A stretch of DNA of 32,000 nucleotides, from NCBI RefSeq assembly GCF_000022265.1, contig NC_011979.1, positions 3,150,001 through 3,182,000 of the forward strand, in the 5' to 3' direction. Under the pieces are notes generated by a model. That model had not been told where the DNA came from. It saw nothing but the letters and a program-made list of their open reading frames with translations, and did no database searches. Shown one piece after another: positions 12,468-32,000 of this stretch; within the stretch, counting starts at the first letter, position 1; every line of letters starts with the position of its first letter. The translations under genes were made by a program, and so were the position numbers. The stretch comes from Geotalea daltonii FRC-32. Its GTDB lineage: Bacteria; Desulfobacterota; Desulfuromonadia; Geobacterales; Geobacteraceae.

Positions 12468-14306
12468 TCAGTGGAGCAGATTCATGTAATCAAGTGACGA
12501 ATCCCCCACCAGCGGATTCAACGGCAGGAGTATGTGAAAAATGGAACCGGAACCGCTATCTGAATTATACCCTGGAGATTCAACCCATATTTCTCCACCG
12601 TGCATATCGACGATTCCCTTGGCAATAGACAGTCCGAGCCCTGCTCCTTTGGCTTTGAATGCAACTTTGCCGGTGCTGTGCTCTTCGATGTTTCCCGCTT
12701 CATAAAATTTGTCGAATATACGGACCTGATCCTCACGGTCGATGCCGATGCCGGTGTCGGCAACAGCTATTTCTACATATAGGTGGTGTTCCTTGCCTAT
12801 ATTCACTATCGATTGACCCTGGACGCTGTCGGCAGACTGCTTGCTGCGCAGGAGGTATTTCGCGCTTGTGGTCACTGTAATTTCACCACCATCGGGAGTG
12901 AATTTGATTGCATTGCCGAGAACGTTGGAAAAAAGCTGTACGAGCCGAAACATGTCTCCCTTGATTGTAGGAATGCTTTCATCCAGCTGGAGGGTCAATT
13001 TCTGCTTACGCATGGAGAAGAAAAAGGCGAGTTCCTTTACTGCATCCCGTACCAGCTGATTTACATGGACATCATCTATTTTTAGCTGCAGCCTCTTTTC
13101 GTCAATCATGGAGACGTCAACCATATCCTTGATTATATTGTCCAGACGCATGGCAGCACTTGAGATATTTCCCACCATCTCAAGTACCGTGTGATCGACT
13201 TTATCGGCCATGTCCGTGGTAATCAGCTCGGCATACCCCATGATAACCGTCAGAGGAGTTTTGAGTTCGTGGGAGGCCAGACCGAGGAAAGAATCCTTCA
13301 TTTTGTTGAGCCTGACAAGGTCGGCGGCGCTCTTTTCCAGATTCATCATGATTTCCCGTTCTTTGGTTACATCCCGGAATATGGCCTGAACAAGACGGTC
13401 ATTGCCGCTTTCGATGCTGCTGGCATGCAGCCTGGAAACTACCAGTGCCCCACCTTTTTTAACAATCTGCATTTCCTCGGCAATATGCAGCCCCTTGGAA
13501 GCATCTTTGAATATCTTATGTATCTTCGGGATATTTTCTATGTTCAACAGGAGCAGCATCTTTGTCAACGGCAGGCCGACCAGTTCCCGTGCACTGTAAC
13601 CAAAAAACTCTTCAGCCATTTTGTTTACCATTTTCACGGACTCGTCTTCACCTACCACGACAATTGCATCACTGGCGTCCTCCATCAAAGATTTATAAAG
13701 CTCTTCCGATTTCTCCAGCTCATGGCTTAGGTGCTCCAGTTTAAGATACGAGGAATGGAGTTCACTGTGGGTTCTTTCAAGCTCTTGATAGTTTTTCCTG
13801 ATCTCCTCATCACGGTTTTTAAGATATGCGGACATTACATTGATATTTTTAGCCAGTTCATTGAATTCATAAACAGGCACTTCCTGGATCCGCACATCGA
13901 ATCCCCCCTCAGAGATTTGTTTGACGCCCTTAAGCAGAACAGAAACAGGCTGAATGATGCTTTTTTTCATGAAAATCACTACCAGGGAAAAGGAAAATAG
14001 CAGAAAAACCAGCAGCAGAAAGACCGAGCGAAGAATCATACCTTTGACCTTGGCAGATATGATCGATTCCTCAAAACCTATATGGACCTGTGCTGTGGGC
14101 TTTCCATCGGCAGTTTTGACAATTGTTACCGTATCATAAAAAGCGGGATCTTTGCCGACGAGGTTTATCTGAACGGTTGGATTGGATGTGTAGGAACGAC
14201 TCGCTCCCCTGATGGCTAGATTTTGGAATTTGGGGTCACTCAGATATAAAATATTGCCATCCAAGTCGGTTATTATACAATAAGCTATATCTGGATTACC
14301 ATCCAC
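12468..14306 (-). CDS. sensor histidine kinase (TM2-HAMP-PAS-HisKA-HATPase), lacking its own TM1/N-terminus
   Basis: H-box SHELKTPLT, N-box LGNAIKFT, G1 DTGIGI and G2 GAGLGLSIAKG. Also a PAS-like segment (LMEDASDAIVVVGED...) and a TM helix plus HAMP around residues 90-160. The listed start is GTG, and the frame stays open upstream to 14360. Confidence 0.85.
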   Translation of the reverse strand: MDGNPDIAYCIITDLDGNILYLSDPKFQNLAIRGASRSYTSNPTVQINLVGKDPAFYDTVTIVKTADGKPTAQVHIGFEESIISAKVKGMILRSVFLLLVFLLFSFSLVVIFMKKSIIQPVSVLLKGVKQISEGGFDVRIQEVPVYEFNELAKNINVMSAYLKNRDEEIRKNYQELERTHSELHSSYLKLEHLSHELEKSEELYKSLMEDASDAIVVVGEDESVKMVNKMAEEFFGYSARELVGLPLTKMLLLLNIENIPKIHKIFKDASKGLHIAEEMQIVKKGGALVVSRLHASSIESGNDRLVQAIFRDVTKEREIMMNLEKSAADLVRLNKMKDSFLGLASHELKTPLTVIMGYAELITTDMADKVDHTVLEMVGNISSAAMRLDNIIKDMVDVSMIDEKRLQLKIDDVHVNQLVRDAVKELAFFFSMRKQKLTLQLDESIPTIKGDMFRLVQLFSNVLGNAIKFTPDGGEITVTTSAKYLLRSKQSADSVQGQSIVNIGKEHHLYVEIAVADTGIGIDREDQVRIFDKFYEAGNIEEHSTGKVAFKAKGAGLGLSIAKGIVDMHGGEIWVESPGYNSDSGSGSIFHILLPLNPLVGDSSLDYMNLLH

Positions 14307-14335
14307 AAGCTCTCGACATTTCTCGGAAATTCCTG

Positions 14336-14539
14336 CTATATCTCTAATGTCGAGCCCAGGTTAAGGACTTTCTCGATGCTTCCCTTCATAGATGCGCTAA
14401 GGCTCTGTGATCTGAGAAACAGTGCGTTTATATAATCCTTTCTGAATCCGATAATATCCAGACCTGCACTGACTAGAATAGTCAAAAACAGGATCAGAAA
14501 CGAGAAAAGGATAATTCGTTTTTCGAGAGTTCTTTTCAT
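14336..14539 (-). CDS. N-terminal fragment of the same sensor kinase (TM1 plus start of the extracytoplasmic domain), separated by a frame change
   Basis: MKRTLEKRIILFSFLILFLTILVSAGL... is a signal-anchor helix. The ORF stops at TAG 14336-14338. The -1 frame then continues PGLDIRDIAGISEKCRELVDGNPD into the kinase ORF. Confidence 0.6.
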   Translation of the reverse strand: MKRTLEKRIILFSFLILFLTILVSAGLDIIGFRKDYINALFLRSQSLSASMKGSIEKVLNLGSTLEI

Positions 14540-14688
14540 TTTGCTCTGGTTTAGGCTATTTTTAAGCAGAAGCATAATATTACCACAAATGCCTCTGAGA
14601 AAAAGATGAATTTTTTTCAGGGTCTGGCACCTTCCCCATTATTCCTTGTTGATAGTTTTTACATTTTTTGAATTTATTAAATAAAATC

Positions 14689-14717
14689 TTGACCATAGAG
14701 CCTTAATTTGTTAAATA
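14689..14717 (+). promoter_or_regulatory. candidate sigma-70 promoter for gap-pgk-tpiA-secG
   Basis: TTGACC (14689-14694), 17-nt spacer, TAAATA (14712-14717). An AT-rich UP-like tract lies upstream. AGGAGG SD at 14769-14774. Confidence 0.35.
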
Positions 14718-14770
14718 ATTTGAGTTATGAGTAAGTATTTATAAATTACTCTAATTAATCTCTCTACTAG

Positions 14771-15778
<1,008 letters not shown>

Positions 15779-26503: not shown

Positions 26504-26896
26504 TTAGCACCCACAACCGCAATTATGACAGACCTTGCGGTTATGGGCTTCCGGCGCAATGGTTTCAGGGGCAAATGCCACCCTATTCACGGCCCGCTTC
26601 AGATCTTCCATAAGATCAAGGTTGGGACTTTTGTCAATGATGTGCCCGACACATGTATTGCCGATATTGTCGGCAGGTGAGGATATTCTGACGGCGTTAA
26701 GCACATCCGCATAGCTGTTCACGTTAATGACCATCTCATTATTCTGAGCATGCTGTAATTTTATGCCGAATTTCTGCAGATCATCGGTCAACTCAATCAG
26801 GAACATTTGGAAATACGCACAGGAAGTATCTACCTTCCAGTCAGGTCTAATGTGATCCTGCCGGTAAAATGTAATCAATATATCTTTTCCTGCCAT
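26504..26896 (-). CDS. hypothetical protein, 130 aa, C-terminal CHNCGCGC cysteine tail
   Basis: GGTGAGG SD 8 nt before ATG 26896. No signal peptide. Six Cys, four of them in the last 8 residues. Last gene of the conduit operon. I recognise no family. Confidence 0.6.
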   Translation of the reverse strand: MAGKDILITFYRQDHIRPDWKVDTSCAYFQMFLIELTDDLQKFGIKLQHAQNNEMVINVNSYADVLNAVRISSPADNIGNTCVGHIIDKSPNLDLMEDLKRAVNRVAFAPETIAPEAHNRKVCHNCGCGC

Positions 26897-26928: not shown

Positions 26929-27312
26929 TCAGCTCGCCGCTTTCCTTTGCATGGAGCTGAAGATCATGTTCAGCACGTCTTTTTGCTTGGCTTCATACTT
27001 GTTAAGCACGGCAAGGCATGTCCCCATGGGAAAGTGCTCGTGAAGGTAATCAGCATCCCGGCCAGACAGGATGACAATCCTGTTTTTGTCGATTCCGGCA
27101 TCGGTAGCATATTTGAATATCTTGGCGCCATCCAGCATGGGCATTTCCAGGTCCACCAGCAACAGATCGATCTTTTGCTTCCTGATGGCATTCAAGGCTT
27201 TGACCGGACTGGTACAGGTTTCCACATCTAAAAGTGGATAGTAGGTTTTTATATAATTACCCAGAATATCCAGGAAAGTGGCGTCATCGTCAACTATCAA
27301 AATTTTACCCAT
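26929..27312 (-). CDS. stand-alone response-regulator receiver (CheY-like)
   Basis: MGKILIVDDD acidic pocket, phospho-acceptor in LLLVDLEMP, ILSG, and a later Lys. No output domain. ATG 27312 has an AGAGG SD. The ORF-track TTG 27336 is less likely. Confidence 0.85.
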   Translation of the reverse strand: MGKILIVDDDATFLDILGNYIKTYYPLLDVETCTSPVKALNAIRKQKIDLLLVDLEMPMLDGAKIFKYATDAGIDKNRIVILSGRDADYLHEHFPMGTCLAVLNKYEAKQKDVLNMIFSSMQRKAAS

Positions 27313-27343: not shown

Positions 27344-28321
27344 TTACTTTACAATCTTGGTCGAAATATTCAACACCTGGATAGGAACATTCAAGTCAAG
27401 CAACTTGGCAGCTTTCAAATTTATCACCAGATCTACTTTTTTCGGTGTCGCCACTGGAATCTGCCCCTGCTTCTTTCCCTGAAGGATAGCTGATACACAT
27501 TCTCCGGCCAGCTGTCCCTGTTCGTAGGTATTAATTTCCAATGTAACCAGAGCACCTTTGTCGGCGGCTTCAGGTACATGGGAAATCACTGGAATACCGT
27601 GATCCCTGGCCCTAAAAATGACTTTTTCCAGGCTGCGAGTCACCAGCGTGCTTTCGGCAGCATAGATAAAATCGACATCCGATGAGGTCAAGGTACCAAG
27701 TGCCGAATCCAGCATATTAGCCGAAGACACATTAAGCTCAACCACCGAAAAACCCATTTGTGCAGCTAGACGTCTTATCTCTTTCAGCTGGATTACGGAA
27801 CCGATTTCCCTTCCATTATACAGAATACCCAGCGATTTGATGTGTTTGATGTCATTGGCTGCTTTTATCAGGGTGATCATTGGAACTTTGGAACTGACAC
27901 CGGTGAGATTTCTGCCGGGAGCAGCCATGCTTCGTGTGACACCGGCTTCAACAGGCCCATAGACATCGACAAAGACAATGGGAATATTATCCACTTCCCG
28001 AATGGCTGCGAGGGTAACCGGCGCTCCATAGGTAATTATGATGTCGGAACCGATGCCGTTGAATTTCCTGATGGTGTTTGCCCAGGAAATGGGGTCAGGG
28101 TTTGGTGTCTGAACGACCAGTTCTACTTTACTCTGGTCAAGGCCCTTCAGTGCCAGAGTTTTCACTAAAGCCCGGTGGGACTCTTTGTAGCGTGTGATAT
28201 CGCTTGTCAGAACTGCCGCAACAAGCTTCCTGCCGGCATATGACGGTAAAACACATGTCAATGACAGTAAAAACAGTATCAGATAAAAACAGCTTCTCAC
28301 AGGCACTCTACCATTTGGCAC
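27344..28321 (-). CDS. periplasmic ABC_sub_bind (PF04392-type) substrate-binding protein
   Basis: Signal peptide (...LTCVLPSYA-GRK). Family-typical blocks: LTGVSS, IKSLGILYN, VDFIYAA, GIPV, GALVTLEI, LAGE...ILQGKK.GQIPV, DLVINLKAAK.L. The start codon is uncertain (GTG 28321, 28306 or 28300). Confidence 0.8.
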   Translation of the reverse strand: MPNGRVPVRSCFYLILFLLSLTCVLPSYAGRKLVAAVLTSDITRYKESHRALVKTLALKGLDQSKVELVVQTPNPDPISWANTIRKFNGIGSDIIITYGAPVTLAAIREVDNIPIVFVDVYGPVEAGVTRSMAAPGRNLTGVSSKVPMITLIKAANDIKHIKSLGILYNGREIGSVIQLKEIRRLAAQMGFSVVELNVSSANMLDSALGTLTSSDVDFIYAAESTLVTRSLEKVIFRARDHGIPVISHVPEAADKGALVTLEINTYEQGQLAGECVSAILQGKKQGQIPVATPKKVDLVINLKAAKLLDLNVPIQVLNISTKIVK

Positions 28322-30413
28322 TCACGTAAGCCGTTATGGAATGAACCGTTCCATCGAATTGGGAATAAAATTTATCATAGTAATCCTGCAACATATATTC
28401 CATCGAGCAGGTCAGGTTTCTGGTAAACCTGTAATTGCCACGGGCAGAAAAGGAGGTCTCAACCGTTTTTGACCGTGAAAGCTCGGTAATACCGCTTGTG
28501 TATCCATAAGGATCAGGAAATGTCTTGTTTTCAGGCTTGAACTCCGAGAGCGAGTGCACCTCCTGCAAGGTCAGGGAAAGATCCGCTTTTTCGGTGAAAC
28601 GATAGGCCGTACCCAAAGAATAAAGATGGGACGCGGACCTGTAATTGGATGCTGCCAGGCTGCCATCTCCGGTTATGGAAAACATCAGTCCCTGATCCAT
28701 ATCGTTTTGCAGGAACCCGTAACTGGCAGTAATGGTAAGTTTTGGGAAAGGGCTGAACCACGCGGCGGTCGTGAAGTTGCGGGTGGTCTTGTCTCTTGAT
28801 AAAAGGGGAGAGAACTGGGCGTATTCAACGGGAGGGGTGGAGGAACTAATAACCCTTCTTTGCATCTCATCATTGAGTTCTCGGCTGTTGCGATAGCTTG
28901 CCGTGAAGCCGAGCCTTCCGGACAGGTTGTAGTTGGAGGTCAATTCTCCTTCATGCTTTTGGGCGAAAGACGTGCCATATGATGGGTGGTCGGTTGAGGT
29001 ATAGCCGTAACGGGCAGTCACCCTGAGTCCCTTCAAGGGACGACTGATAACGGAAATGGACCCCTTGTGGGTACTCTCGTTTTCATTGAGATACCAATTG
29101 AGGGTTTCGTCAAGGTAATGAACCAGGTTGCGATGCAGGAATTCACCTTTGTATTCACCCTTGACCGTAAGTTGGTTGGTGGGACGAAATAACAGGGTCG
29201 CCAGAATTACGTCCTTTTCTGTGCCAATGGAAGGGCGAACAGCCAGGATGTTATTGATAAAAAAGCTATTGGTGATGGTGGAGGGGTTGCGGTTCTCCAC
29301 CTCCTGCCGCCGGTATTTAAACCCTAACGACAGCTCCTTGAACGGCGTATAAACCAGATCACCGGCGTAATTATGCAGATTTGCCGAAGTCTGATCGGCT
29401 CCCGTAGTGTCGTTCAACCGTGACAGGTTGTCCCTCTTGCCGTAGGTATAGGATCCTGCCCCCACAAGGCCGCCTGCCAGTGAAGTGTGTAATTTCACCG
29501 TATGGGCAAAATAACGGCTGTCCGTATCTTCATTATGTTCCTGTATGCCAGACCTGTGAATGCTGCCAAAGACATTGCGCTCGACATAATTATCCCTGAG
29601 TTGTTCGGCTTTATTGATGAACTGCCTGATCTGGAAGTTGTATATCAGGTCGATCGGACCCAGATGAGTATCGAAGCCTATCTTTCCCTCATGTGTCTCA
29701 CGATTTACGGATCTGGATCTGGCAAAGAAGTTGTTCAGCGTCCCTTCAAAGGCAATATCCGCAAAGCGTATCTGACTTGTACCTTCTTTTACCATGCGCC
29801 AGTAGCCCAAGTTCACATGCAGTGGAAAGTCATGGATTTTGTAACGCAGACTGGCCGAATCCTGTTCGGTCTTCAGGCCGTACCCGGTCAGGGAAGAATC
29901 CTGATGGGGAATATAAGCGATACCTGGAAAATCAATCGGCTCGCTAAATAGTATTTCTCCGGTCGTATTGTGAAACAGAGCCTCGGTGCGCAGATGAAAG
30001 CGGTATTCACCGGCATAGTCGAAATTCAGATCGCCGTAATAATCTTTGTCGTTAAGATAGTTACCGTCCAGGGTAAATTTAAGGTCCTGCCCCAGCCTGT
30101 TGTAACTGGCACCGCCAATAATACCTGAATGCAGATAATTGTATTTGGAAGCGCGTCCGCCATAGTTGTCGATGGTCAGAAATCTGTATCCGGTGTATCC
30201 CTCCAGCAAAGAATGGGTCTCTGCAGCTTTTGCAGGAAATGCCTCTTGCAGCAGGGCTTCATCCAGCTCCGATAATTCGGAGCCGTCAGCAAGGTGGTTT
30301 TCTGTCTCGGTCGAAGTATCTGGTTTCTCCGAAGCCAAAGCATTGATAACCGAGAGATTAAACACAACTAATGCTGCCGCAAGCAAACAGGTCAATCTTA
30401 AGAGCTTTATCAC
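28308..30413 (-). CDS. large outer-membrane beta-barrel protein, MtrB/PioB-like (decaheme-associated porin)
   Basis: About 700 aa. AAGGAG SD 7 nt before GTG 30413 gives signal peptide MIKLLRLTCLLAAALVVFNLSVINALA-SE. Dozens of alternating-hydrophobicity strands (LTITASYGF, YSLGTAYRF, FSARGNYRF). C-terminal aromatic ...YVSAKW. The size and the position directly after an MtrA-type cytochrome match MtrB/PioB/MtoB. Confidence 0.65.
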   Translation of the reverse strand: MIKLLRLTCLLAAALVVFNLSVINALASEKPDTSTETENHLADGSELSELDEALLQEAFPAKAAETHSLLEGYTGYRFLTIDNYGGRASKYNYLHSGIIGGASYNRLGQDLKFTLDGNYLNDKDYYGDLNFDYAGEYRFHLRTEALFHNTTGEILFSEPIDFPGIAYIPHQDSSLTGYGLKTEQDSASLRYKIHDFPLHVNLGYWRMVKEGTSQIRFADIAFEGTLNNFFARSRSVNRETHEGKIGFDTHLGPIDLIYNFQIRQFINKAEQLRDNYVERNVFGSIHRSGIQEHNEDTDSRYFAHTVKLHTSLAGGLVGAGSYTYGKRDNLSRLNDTTGADQTSANLHNYAGDLVYTPFKELSLGFKYRRQEVENRNPSTITNSFFINNILAVRPSIGTEKDVILATLLFRPTNQLTVKGEYKGEFLHRNLVHYLDETLNWYLNENESTHKGSISVISRPLKGLRVTARYGYTSTDHPSYGTSFAQKHEGELTSNYNLSGRLGFTASYRNSRELNDEMQRRVISSSTPPVEYAQFSPLLSRDKTTRNFTTAAWFSPFPKLTITASYGFLQNDMDQGLMFSITGDGSLAASNYRSASHLYSLGTAYRFTEKADLSLTLQEVHSLSEFKPENKTFPDPYGYTSGITELSRSKTVETSFSARGNYRFTRNLTCSMEYMLQDYYDKFYSQFDGTVHSITAYVSAKW

Positions 30414-30448
30414 CAGCAATCTCCTTCTGCGCAAACGGAACGGTTTTT

Positions 30449-31444
30449 TTACTGACGCATTGTGCCCAGGCCGGTTACACCAGTTGACGGAATATCACTT
30501 CCATGAATCTGTGAATGGCAATCCGTGCAGCGATTGGAAAAGAGCTGTTTTGTTCCAGTGGTTCCGGCCATATGACCTGCATGGCACTGCAGGCAAAGAA
30601 ATGGCATCGTTGTATTCAGAAGCTGGTTGTTGGTTGACCCGTGGGGGGAATGGCAATTGGTGCAATTCTCAGTGACATCGCCATGCTCGAAGACGAAGGG
30701 ACCCTGTTTCTCCATGTGGCATTTCGTGCATGTTTCCTTTGGAGTATCGCCTTTAAGGAGGCTTTCCTGTGTGGACCCGTGGACATCATGACAGTCGGCA
30801 CAGGCCATCTTTTTCTCCACCAGGGGGTGATGTGAATACAAGTTGTTTTCAATTCTTACCTGTGGATGGCAGCCATAGCATAACTCAGCCATCTCTTCAT
30901 GCTTGACTTTCTGCTGTGGCCCCTGATGCAGCTTATGGCAATCAAGGCAACTCACGTCACTCAATGCGTGGGCACTGGCATTCCAGTGGGCCAGGGTCGG
31001 GATGGAAGCTGCGGAATGGCATTTAAGGCAGATAAGTGACTGGGCCTGGGCGGGGAGGTTCAGAATATCGAGGAATGTCTTGGAATCGCATTTTGTTTTC
31101 CTGGCGTCGTTCAATTCAGGGTCTTCAGGAAGGTCCATTATGGCAAGGCTTCCCGGACCATGGCAAGATTCGCAGTTGACCAGCGGCAGTCCTGTTCCCG
31201 GTTTTATCTGCTCACCATGGACGCTGTGCCGGAAATCGTCGGTTATCTTGTCATGGGCATGGCATTTGGCAACGCAATTGTCGGTTCCCACATAATCCGC
31301 ATCAAACCTGCCGACGATCATTCTTTCATAGTCAGAAACCGGCAGAAGCGGTTTTGTCTGCTTCAGCTGGGAACAGGCTGCCGACAGCACAGCAACAGCC
31401 ACGGCAATGAAAACACGGCACAGCATTCCCCTGTTGACTGTCAT
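30449..31444 (-). CDS. decaheme c-type cytochrome, MtrA/DmsE/PioA/MtoA family
   Basis: 331 aa with ten CxxCH motifs: CVAKCH, CESCH, CLKCH, CLDCH, CYGCH, CADCH, CTKCH, CTNCH, CLQCH, CTDCH. Signal peptide present. Collinear with S. oneidensis MtrA as I recall it (333 aa, 10 hemes), for example SHHPL...CADCHDVHGS and EKQGPFVFEHGDVTENCTNCHSPHGS...LCLQCHA. Confidence 0.88.
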   Translation of the reverse strand: MTVNRGMLCRVFIAVAVAVLSAACSQLKQTKPLLPVSDYERMIVGRFDADYVGTDNCVAKCHAHDKITDDFRHSVHGEQIKPGTGLPLVNCESCHGPGSLAIMDLPEDPELNDARKTKCDSKTFLDILNLPAQAQSLICLKCHSAASIPTLAHWNASAHALSDVSCLDCHKLHQGPQQKVKHEEMAELCYGCHPQVRIENNLYSHHPLVEKKMACADCHDVHGSTQESLLKGDTPKETCTKCHMEKQGPFVFEHGDVTENCTNCHSPHGSTNNQLLNTTMPFLCLQCHAGHMAGTTGTKQLFSNRCTDCHSQIHGSDIPSTGVTGLGTMRQ

Positions 31445-32000
31445 CTAATCCCCTCGTATTCCCTTTGTTGTCGTGTAGATGAAACCCTTTACGATCGGAT
31501 TCTCGCTCTTTTTGATCTGTGCCGGAGAGCCTACCTCGATAATCTTGCCTCCATGCATCATGGCAATACGGTCTGAAATGTAGAGTGCAAAATTCAAATC
31601 ATGGGTGACTATAACGGTCGTATTTTTAGTAGTTTCCTTGAGTTTCAAAATAGTATTGGCAAGCTCGTCCGTAGTTACCGGGTCCAGCTCTGCAGTGGGC
31701 TCGTCATAAAGTATCAGATCAGGGTTCATGGCCAGGGAACGGGCAATGGCAACCCTTTTTTTCATCCCCCCCGAAAGTTCGGAGGTCCTCAAATTTTCCG
31801 TGTCCTGCAGGCCTACCTTTTCCAGTTTTTCAGTTATGATCTGCCTGATCCTCACTTCCTTGCAGATGCGCTTTTCGCGCAACCAAAGACCGACGTTTTC
31901 GCCAACTGTCAGTGAATTAAAGAGCGCAGAAGACTGAAAGACCATGCTGTAGCGGTAGTCTCTGATGGAGTTGTTTTTAATCCTGTTGAAAATGGGATTG
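31445..32000 (-). CDS. ABC transporter ATP-binding protein, MlaF-like; 5' end off the window
   Basis: Q-loop MVFQSSALF, signature LSGGMKKRVAIAR, Walker B LILYDEPTAELD, H-loop VTHD, and a C-terminal NPIVKGFI like MlaF (DPRVRQFL). The frame is open to position 32000 (…NPIFNRIKNNSIRDYRYS-MVFQ). Confidence 0.85.
   Translation of the reverse strand, partial: NPIFNRIKNNSIRDYRYSMVFQSSALFNSLTVGENVGLWLREKRICKEVRIRQIITEKLEKVGLQDTENLRTSELSGGMKKRVAIARSLAMNPDLILYDEPTAELDPVTTDELANTILKLKETTKNTTVIVTHDLNFALYISDRIAMMHGGKIIEVGSPAQIKKSENPIVKGFIYTTTKGIRGD

Follow-up and report, generated by a model that had tools for sequence, protein, structure and literature searches.

Homologs of DmsE, MtoA, MtrA and OmcI that are encoded beside genes for MtrB/PioB-like porins have been reported across Desulfuromonadia, and in Geobacterales such pairs are flanked by genes for ATP-binding cassette (ABC) ATP-binding and substrate-binding proteins, for which a transport role was suggested (Soares et al. 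2024, PMC11492766). In G. sulfurreducens, omcI is up-regulated when the organism is grown as the electron-accepting partner in direct interspecies electron transfer (DIET; PMC10580878), and deletion of OmcI affected growth on Fe(III) citrate and Fe oxides, according to Aklujkar 2013 as cited in PMC9248073. Here we describe the pair formed by the cytochrome gene Geob_2912 and the barrel gene Geob_2911 of Geotalea daltonii FRC-32, which lies in a stretch of 32,000 nucleotides (nt) of contig NC_011979.1 (positions 3,150,001 to 3,182,000), called the window below. The host, presented as an Fe(III) and U(VI) reducer in the title of its reference, is a Desulfobacterota anaerobe, as had been supposed in an earlier reading of the DNA letters made with no database search (hereafter the sequence-only reading).

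An exact look-up identified the barrel as ACM21254 and the cytochrome as ACM21255. The latter is annotated 'lipoprotein cytochrome c, 10 heme-binding sites' and is named 'DmsE family decaheme c-type cytochrome' in RefSeq; the barrel was 100% identical to an 'outer membrane channel, putative' of Geotalea (Geobacter) daltonii FRC-32. The locus tags Geob_2911 and Geob_2912 were assigned via tagged neighbour genes. The proteins closest to a cytochrome with 9+1 heme motifs from G. uraniireducens NIT-SL11 are omcI/GSU1228, Geob_2912 and Gura_2291 (PMC9961858, Table 3), and these best hits of a third genome suggest that Geob_2912 is the G. daltonii counterpart of OmcI (GSU1228). A guessed tag, Gmet_1868, turned out to be an unrelated 4-heme cytochrome and was discarded.

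The locus of the pair, its likeness to MtrAB and its ABC-gene neighbours were already annotated or published (2024); a literature search by locus tag returned nothing for Geob_2911-2913. What is new is the family-wide order of cytochrome, barrel and PF04392 binding protein and the linkage of this block to chemoreceptors, with CheW and an MtrC-like cytochrome often nearby. Our literature search found no paper describing a linkage of cytochrome, barrel, binding protein and chemoreceptor. Our preferred reading, to which we give a probability of roughly 55%, is that the pair forms an OmcI-type MtrAB porin-cytochrome heme wire across the outer membrane and that a signalling pathway senses the state of this wire.

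A search with the DmsE-family model TIGR03508, one of the checks proposed in the sequence-only reading, returned Geob_2912 with 274 bits against a curated cut-off of 192.2 (E value 1e-81, profile positions 1-257 of 258), so that a chance match can be dismissed. Residues 52-320 aligned to MtrA (6R2Q_A, E 8e-43) with all ten heme motifs in register with those of 6R2Q and a one-residue gap in MtrA at motif 1. The density and order of motifs that had been likened to MtrA are thereby borne out. The earlier count of ten CxxCH in 331 amino acids (aa) holds for the number of heme motifs and not for their spacing: nine are CXXCH and the first is CX3CH, where MtrA has CX2CH. The same arrangement (nine CX2CH and one CX3CH, with CX3CH first) was found in 119 of 119 close, 8 of 8 distant and 65 of 66 metagenome homologs. 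A lipobox was present in about 100 of the 119 close homologs and in 7 of the 8 distant ones, and [AGS]C preceded the tether in 66 of 66 metagenome homologs. This conserved tether, which follows the lipid-modified Cys, reads ...KQS[KR]P[IL]LPVxEYE[KR]MIVGRLDAxYVG, and its short signature GR[L]DAxY[VI]G, used to assign membership of the cassette, is present in Geob_2912. One additional Cys, C119, was invariant in the alignment from Geobacteraceae to Nitrospirota relatives, and the region around it lies opposite a gap in MtrA; it may serve as an axial ligand of a heme or as a thiol with redox activity. The whole signature (lipobox, tether, CX3CH heme 1 and extra Cys) spans Geobacteraceae to Nitrospirota metagenome-assembled genomes (MAGs). 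Together, these results show that Geob_2912 is a decaheme lipoprotein of the MtrA/DmsE family.

The next gene, Geob_2911, encodes the signal-peptide-bearing, MtrB-sized barrel of about 700 aa ending in Trp that had been predicted from the letters. The product has 701 aa from the GTG start of GenBank at position 30413 or 708 aa from a TTG at 30434, contains a disordered acidic N-terminal stretch and ends in an invariant Trp (...SAKW). Both genes were found on the minus strand at the positions given by the sequence-only reading (Table 1), 14-35 nt apart. Its remark that the mature barrel has no N-terminal CxxC extends to the entire protein, as neither CxxC nor CxxCH occurs anywhere in Geob_2911; no CxxC was found in the eight distant barrels considered below. 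The AlphaFold2 model (predicted local distance difference test, pLDDT, 78.4; predicted template modelling score, pTM, 0.67) contained 26 strands of at least 9 residues, and 26 is also the strand number of MtrB (PMC12133095). When this model was compared with the PDB by Foldseek, the top match was MtrB (6R2Q_B, E 9e-19, template modelling (TM) score 0.62/0.67). TonB-dependent receptors came next (E ~2e-8, TM <0.45), about ten orders of magnitude behind. The fold thus shows Geob_2911, as modelled, to be an MtrB-like large barrel of 26 predicted strands. Among its relatives, 13 of 32 matched PF11854 and 5 of 32 matched TIGR03509, a model that was also matched by 25 of 50 more distant members. The barrel superfamily is small, with 449 clusters at E<=0.001 among 1.84 billion representatives. 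Two unusual gene calls were encountered in it. P0491 (L042 212-3202) is a 996-aa call in which a SPOR-like N-terminal part is joined to a barrel, and P0551 is a 1004-aa call named DmsE-family decaheme that shares a 90% cluster with a barrel of 692 aa. Both may be genuine fusions, or else artefacts of read-through or assembly.

A genome scan at species level yielded 33 loci from Geobacteraceae, Desulfuromonadaceae and unclassified 'Deltaproteobacteria' MAGs. In 33 of 33, the genes followed the order deacetylase, unknown, tetratricopeptide repeat (TPR) protein, membrane protein, ATPase, cytochrome, barrel, binding protein and receiver (then the 130-aa protein, a phosphoesterase and SppA). The ATPase was present in 31 related loci and missing in L031 and L033, and the barrel adjoined the cytochrome in all genome loci. 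G. metallireducens carries the same block, reaching to an aminoacyl-tRNA synthetase gene. Median gaps between the ATPase, cytochrome, barrel, binding protein, receiver and 130-aa protein genes were 20-36 nt over about 30 loci, a spacing typical of operons. Because this synteny is shared by 33 loci and by G. metallireducens, we conclude that the module is an ancestral, vertically inherited core block of Geobacteraceae/Desulfuromonadia. Recent horizontal transfer, which the sequence-only reading had considered, is contradicted by the deep synteny, the ordinary GC content (0.49 in the two genes, as in their flanks), the housekeeping flanks and the lack of mobile-element genes, and was rejected. 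The tempting inference that Mtr-type modules in Desulfuromonadia are recent imports should be corrected accordingly: they are ancestral.

Eight distant barrel homologs (20-27% identity) were taken from the representative search and picked blind to their context. In 8 of 8 loci an OmcI-like lipoprotein decaheme was encoded directly upstream of the barrel, and in 6 of 8 chemoreceptor, CheW or CheA genes lay at most two genes away from the block of cytochrome, barrel and binding protein. Two of these eight loci map to Nitrospiraceae/Nitrospirota MAGs. A metagenome scan with the distant cytochromes then gave 80 loci (GC 0.39-0.64; 55 clusters at 90% identity and 8 at 70%), in which neighbour genes were detected by purpose-built hidden Markov models (HMMs). 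The barrel followed the cytochrome in 64 of 65 metagenome loci, and a methyl-accepting chemotaxis protein came directly after the binding protein in 41 of 44. As judged from HMM match coordinates, the binding-protein and chemoreceptor genes abut to the base in many loci and overlap in some. CheW was found within 3.5 kb upstream in 13 of 29.

The binding protein is a constant neighbour of the pair. The window protein, Geob_2910, matched PF04392 (E 1.5e-45) and PDB entry 3LKV (4e-31), and its homolog stood directly after the barrel in 34 of 34 related loci with sequence there, in 7 of 7 distant loci and in 55 of 56 metagenome loci. A receiver of the Geob_2909 type followed the binding protein in every Desulfuromonadia locus reaching that far (median gap 36 nt). 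A chemoreceptor directly after the binding protein was found neither in the window nor in any Desulfuromonadia locus, the single-domain response regulator being there instead. In the distant cassettes the MlaF-like ATPase was absent, and an AAA_22 ATPase not related to it was found instead.

In 10 of 29 metagenome loci, a cytochrome matching an MtrC-like model was encoded just upstream of the cytochrome gene. Three of these MtrC-like lipoproteins are complete (L054 5711-7957, L065 5376-7946 and L090 5724-7946), with 740-856 aa and ten heme motifs each. Two of the three matched PF22113 (48-65 bits against a cut-off of 30), and the MtrC/MtrF domain II/IV model was matched by L054, L065 and L045. 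Further multiheme lipoprotein cytochromes adjoin the cassette at L045 6470-8221 and L127 11893-12672. Where it is present, the MtrC-like gene together with the cassette recreates the order mtrC-mtrA-mtrB, with CheW and the AAA_22 ATPase ahead. These data show that the gene order is conserved, and we propose to group the loci on the basis of cytochrome, barrel and PF04392 binding protein, which are constant family-wide, Nitrospirota MAGs included, as a chemoreceptor-linked cassette.

In the preferred reading, the lipid-anchored ten-heme Geob_2912 would be threaded through the 26-strand barrel of Geob_2911, and the resulting heme wire would join the periplasmic cytochrome pool to the cell exterior. 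By reference to the solved Mtr complex, heme 1 would point towards the periplasm and heme 10 outside, and electrons could pass either way. The periplasmic binding protein and the product of the next gene (a receiver here, a chemoreceptor elsewhere) would read or relay the state of the wire, as the gene linkage suggests. What is read may be the redox state of the wire or one of its products, rather than the wire simply feeding a dedicated terminal reductase. The cytochrome family, the barrel fold, the operon-like spacing, the synteny, the family-wide partners and the shared signature all support this reading, as do the published growth effect of deleting OmcI and the induction of omcI under DIET. 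From these observations we infer complex formation, electron transfer, its direction and the sensory coupling, the signalling readout being suggested because a binding protein and a signalling protein are the constant partners of the pair throughout the family.

Several observations weigh against this interpretation. The barrel had been taken for a member of the MtrB/PioB type; this stands for the fold and fails for the sequence family, since Geob_2911 matched neither TIGR03509 nor PF11854 at E<=0.01. Furthermore, 6R2Q_B was not found in the PDB at E<=10 by the single barrel sequence or by a 32-sequence family profile, so that only the fold search links the barrel to the solved MtrB. The synteny in Geobacteraceae covers unrelated housekeeping neighbours too, and the linkage may therefore partly reflect inheritance and not function. 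The metagenome loci, selected for their likeness to a single distant cytochrome, collapse to the 8 clusters at 70% mentioned above. Geobacteraceae have no adjacent chemoreceptor or kinase, which leaves the route from a periplasmic binding protein to a cytoplasmic receiver unexplained. The model assigns no role to the MlaF-like ATPase, nor does it account for the small membrane protein and the Cys-rich 130-aa protein. Finally, the OmcI phenotype fits a plain respiratory role equally well, and such a role is not exclusive of a sensory one.

A stronger form of the preferred reading, which we put forward tentatively as a possibility with the odds against it, is that the OmcI-type module acts as a 'redox antenna', that is, as the extracellular input of a chemosensory or behavioural pathway rather than mainly as a respiratory outlet. 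The wire would then tell the cell how oxidised or reduced external minerals, electrodes or partner cells are. The PF04392 protein might read its periplasmic end (tether, CX3CH heme 1 and extra Cys), and the signal would pass to chemoreceptors and CheW in Nitrospirota and other relatives, or to the CheY-like receiver in Geobacteraceae. If this were true, the family-wide cassette of MtrAB(C), binding protein and chemoreceptor would provide a direct molecular route for taxis to insoluble acceptors. Geobacter chemotaxis and Shewanella congregation are known precedents for the way in which metal reducers find and recognise insoluble acceptors, electrodes and syntrophic partners. To the study of this behaviour the cassette offers defined genes and proteins: Geob_2908-2913 and the counterparts in the OmcI region of G. 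sulfurreducens and G. metallireducens, two species with published deletion mutants. An MtrAB-like pair without MtrC in a Geobacter relative adds little alone; it is the constant partners that could matter.

The alternative that survives best is a plain respiratory conduit, exporting electrons to Fe(III), Mn(IV), electrodes or partner cells via outer-surface cytochromes encoded elsewhere, with neighbours that are unrelated or that serve in expression control. The homology to MtrA and the MtrB fold are what such a conduit would show, MtrAB alone can move electrons across a membrane (PMC4245776), a mutant lacking OmcI showed an effect with Fe(III) citrate and with Fe oxides as cited in PMC9248073, omcI is induced during DIET (PMC10580878), and reduction of Fe(III) and U(VI), as in the title of the host's reference, agrees with it. 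However, a binding protein follows the barrel in essentially every locus of two phyla and a signalling gene comes next in nearly all, which is hard to ascribe to coincidence, and the genome already contains dedicated porin-cytochrome conduits (Pcc; PMC4245776). We therefore regard this alternative as possible, though doubtful as a full account.

The sequence-only reading itself had taken the pair for a PioAB/MtoAB-like module of Fe(II) oxidation or electron uptake, acquired horizontally. Part of this is retained. The layout is indeed one of two genes, and the claim that no further multiheme or molybdoenzyme gene follows was verified, as the window outside the pair contains no other cytochrome, molybdoenzyme or mobile-element gene. 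An MtrC-like gene immediately upstream, which that reading had named as contrary evidence, was looked for, and the 10 kb upstream of the cytochrome (locus L001) hold no cytochrome, MtrC-like or molybdoenzyme gene. Mtr clusters of Fe(II) oxidation are often without mtrC (PMC4245776), and omcI is up in G. sulfurreducens as the electron-accepting DIET partner (PMC10580878). Other findings tell against the claim. The pair is part of a longer block, in which it is joined by an ATPase, a PF04392 protein and a response regulator; synteny, housekeeping position on the chromosome, GC and the missing mobile-element genes speak against acquisition, as described above; no PioC-, MtoD- or CymA-type partner is adjacent, the neighbours being the ATPase, the binding protein, the receiver, the TPR protein and unknowns; and an MtrC-like decaheme adjoins the same cassette in some relatives. 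This explanation as a whole appears improbable to us, even if the pair might still serve electron uptake.

We consider it just as unpromising, in line with the low probability that we give it, that barrel, binding protein and ATPase together move a substance across the envelope, for instance a metal after its reduction, as proposed by Soares et al. 2024 (PMC11492766). In favour of this, the pair does have an ABC ATPase on one side and a binding protein of ABC type on the other. Yet the block has no permease gene, the ATPase is MlaF-like, whereas PF04392 binding proteins usually go with another type, and this ATPase is missing from two Desulfuromonadia loci and replaced by the AAA_22 ATPase in the distant cassettes. 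Moreover, the binding-protein gene of relatives abuts or overlaps a chemoreceptor gene and not transporter genes. Lastly, a purely periplasmic NrfB-like cytochrome beside an unrelated porin, held out by the sequence-only reading as a contrary possibility and suggested by weak Pfam matches to NrfB-like (35 bits), c7 and c3 models and by the failure of the barrel in the MtrB/PioB sequence models, was already disfavoured and has next to no chance of being correct, given the 274 bits for the DmsE family, the wide margin by which MtrB is the best fold match of the barrel, and the fixed adjacency of the two genes in 64 of 65 metagenome loci and all genome loci.

Table 1. Features of the cytochrome-barrel locus and its neighbours (window positions)
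Feature	Coordinates	Strand	Description
Geob_2908	26504..26896	minus	130-aa uncharacterised protein, C-terminal CHNCGCGC
Geob_2909	26929..27312	minus	single-domain CheY-like response-regulator receiver, PF00072
Geob_2910	27344..28300	minus	periplasmic PF04392 (ABC_sub_bind) binding protein, 7 nt past the barrel
Geob_2911, barrel	28308..30434	minus	708 aa from TTG; MtrB-like by fold
Geob_2912, cytochrome	30449..31444	minus	331-aa lipoprotein decaheme c-type cytochrome, MtrA/DmsE family, OmcI type
Cytochrome C119	31088..31090	minus	invariant, outside the heme motifs; from alignment column, insertion vs MtrA
Cytochrome first heme motif	31259..31276	minus	atypical CX3CH, C57-V-A-K-C61-H62; from motif count
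Cytochrome signal peptide and lipobox	31373..31444	minus	LSAA-C24; direct sequence reading, PROSITE-type lipobox pattern
Geob_2913	31445..32000	minus	MlaF/MceG-like ABC ATPase, C-terminal 185 codons; gene extends beyond the window

The stop codon of Geob_2913 abuts the start codon of the cytochrome, and the full ATPase in the genome has 276 aa (L001 9170-10000). Its best PDB matches were MlaF chains (7D06_B, 1.4e-48), MlaF/MceG being lipid-transport ATPases. No MlaE-like or other permease gene was found near it in the block, in L001 or in the related loci. The gene upstream of the ATPase (L001 8647-9147) encodes a conserved small membrane protein that was assigned to no family and is also found ahead of the ATPase in the majority of Desulfuromonadia loci; it has 145-166 aa and three to four hydrophobic segments, with a CxxC in the second of these. 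The 10 kb upstream (L001) encode, besides this protein, a TPR protein, an unknown, a deacetylase-family protein, Amt, a regulator and a class-I (Glu/Gln-type) aminoacyl-tRNA synthetase. At the other end, Geob_2908 had no Pfam or NCBIfam match. Its family counts 1097 homologs, of which the organism-named ones are all Geobacteraceae, with C82, H85 and the C-terminal motif invariant, and its gene follows the receiver in 24 loci. The AlphaFold2 model of Geob_2908 (pLDDT 86) gave no PDB fold match at E<=0.001, only vague thioredoxin-like resemblances.

Housekeeping genes make up the remainder of the window, among them those for purine synthesis, gap-pgk-tpi, MscS, a histidine kinase and SppA. The histidine kinase (12468-14306, minus strand) has an sCache_3_2-HAMP-PAS sensor and is encoded 14 kb from the module, with unrelated genes between. 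The same type of sensor domain is found in the chemoreceptors that follow the binding protein of distant relatives, which may be coincidence. GC content dips to 0.395 at 14001-15000, in the intergenic stretch that separates the divergent histidine kinase and gap genes, and is about 0.49-0.50 elsewhere. A scan of 26-32 kb for promoters and terminators gave counts not above those of shuffled sequence.

When the pair is set beside Shewanella MtrCAB (6R2Q), it shares with MtrA the ten hemes in about 330 aa with motifs in register, and with MtrB a barrel of about 700 aa and 26 strands that is its best fold match, as well as the gene order of cytochrome followed by barrel. It differs from MtrA in the OmcI-type CX3CH of heme 1, the insertion with an invariant extra Cys and the conserved N-terminal tether. 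Geob_2912 is a lipoprotein, which Shewanella MtrA is not known to be. Geob_2911 differs from MtrB in being undetected by MtrB/PioB sequence models, and it lacks the N-terminal CxxC that the sequence-only reading ascribes to Shewanella MtrB. The operon contains no mtrC, and a PF04392 binding protein and a receiver follow the barrel. Compared with the OmcI-type loci described in 2024, nothing essential is different, and the Geob pair is the G. daltonii member of that group.

OmcK/OmcL (GSU2203/GSU2204) is a second MtrAB-like pair of decaheme and barrel, found in Geobacter and in syntrophic sulfate reducers, where it has been discussed as a conduit (PMC10553843). Its families are the next-best NCBIfam matches of the window proteins. 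Membership was rejected, as both scores remained below the cut-offs (cytochrome against the GSU2203/OmcK family NF041028, 245 bits vs 325; barrel against the GSU2204 family NF041027, 78 bits vs 350) and the window barrel contains no CXXCH. PioAB and MtoAB resemble the pair in layout only, a decaheme and a barrel without an outer cytochrome gene; here, in contrast, the host is an Fe(III) reducer and the two genes form part of a longer conserved operon.

The Pcc systems of Geobacter (OmaB-OmbB-OmcB and the Ext clusters) likewise provide a heme path from periplasm to surface through a porin (PMC4245776), but they belong to unrelated families: their periplasmic cytochrome has 8 hemes, their porin is smaller and their outer lipoprotein carries 12 hemes. 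The ten-heme MtrA-like cytochrome, the modelled 26-strand barrel and the lack of an outer cytochrome gene led us to reject a Pcc-type conduit for the locus. Contrary to the earlier suggestion of an Mtr-type module in place of Pcc, the G. daltonii genome carries Pcc clusters as well (PMC4245776), and the two coexist. The concept of Mtr-type cytochromes as an input to chemoreceptor- and CheA-dependent behaviour towards insoluble acceptors has its precedent in the redox sensing and congregation of Shewanella (PMC5789149); there the evidence is physiological and gene linkage was not reported, whereas here the proposed connection is one of gene linkage. We regard the module as a variant of the Mtr kind that is distinct and as yet uncharacterised.

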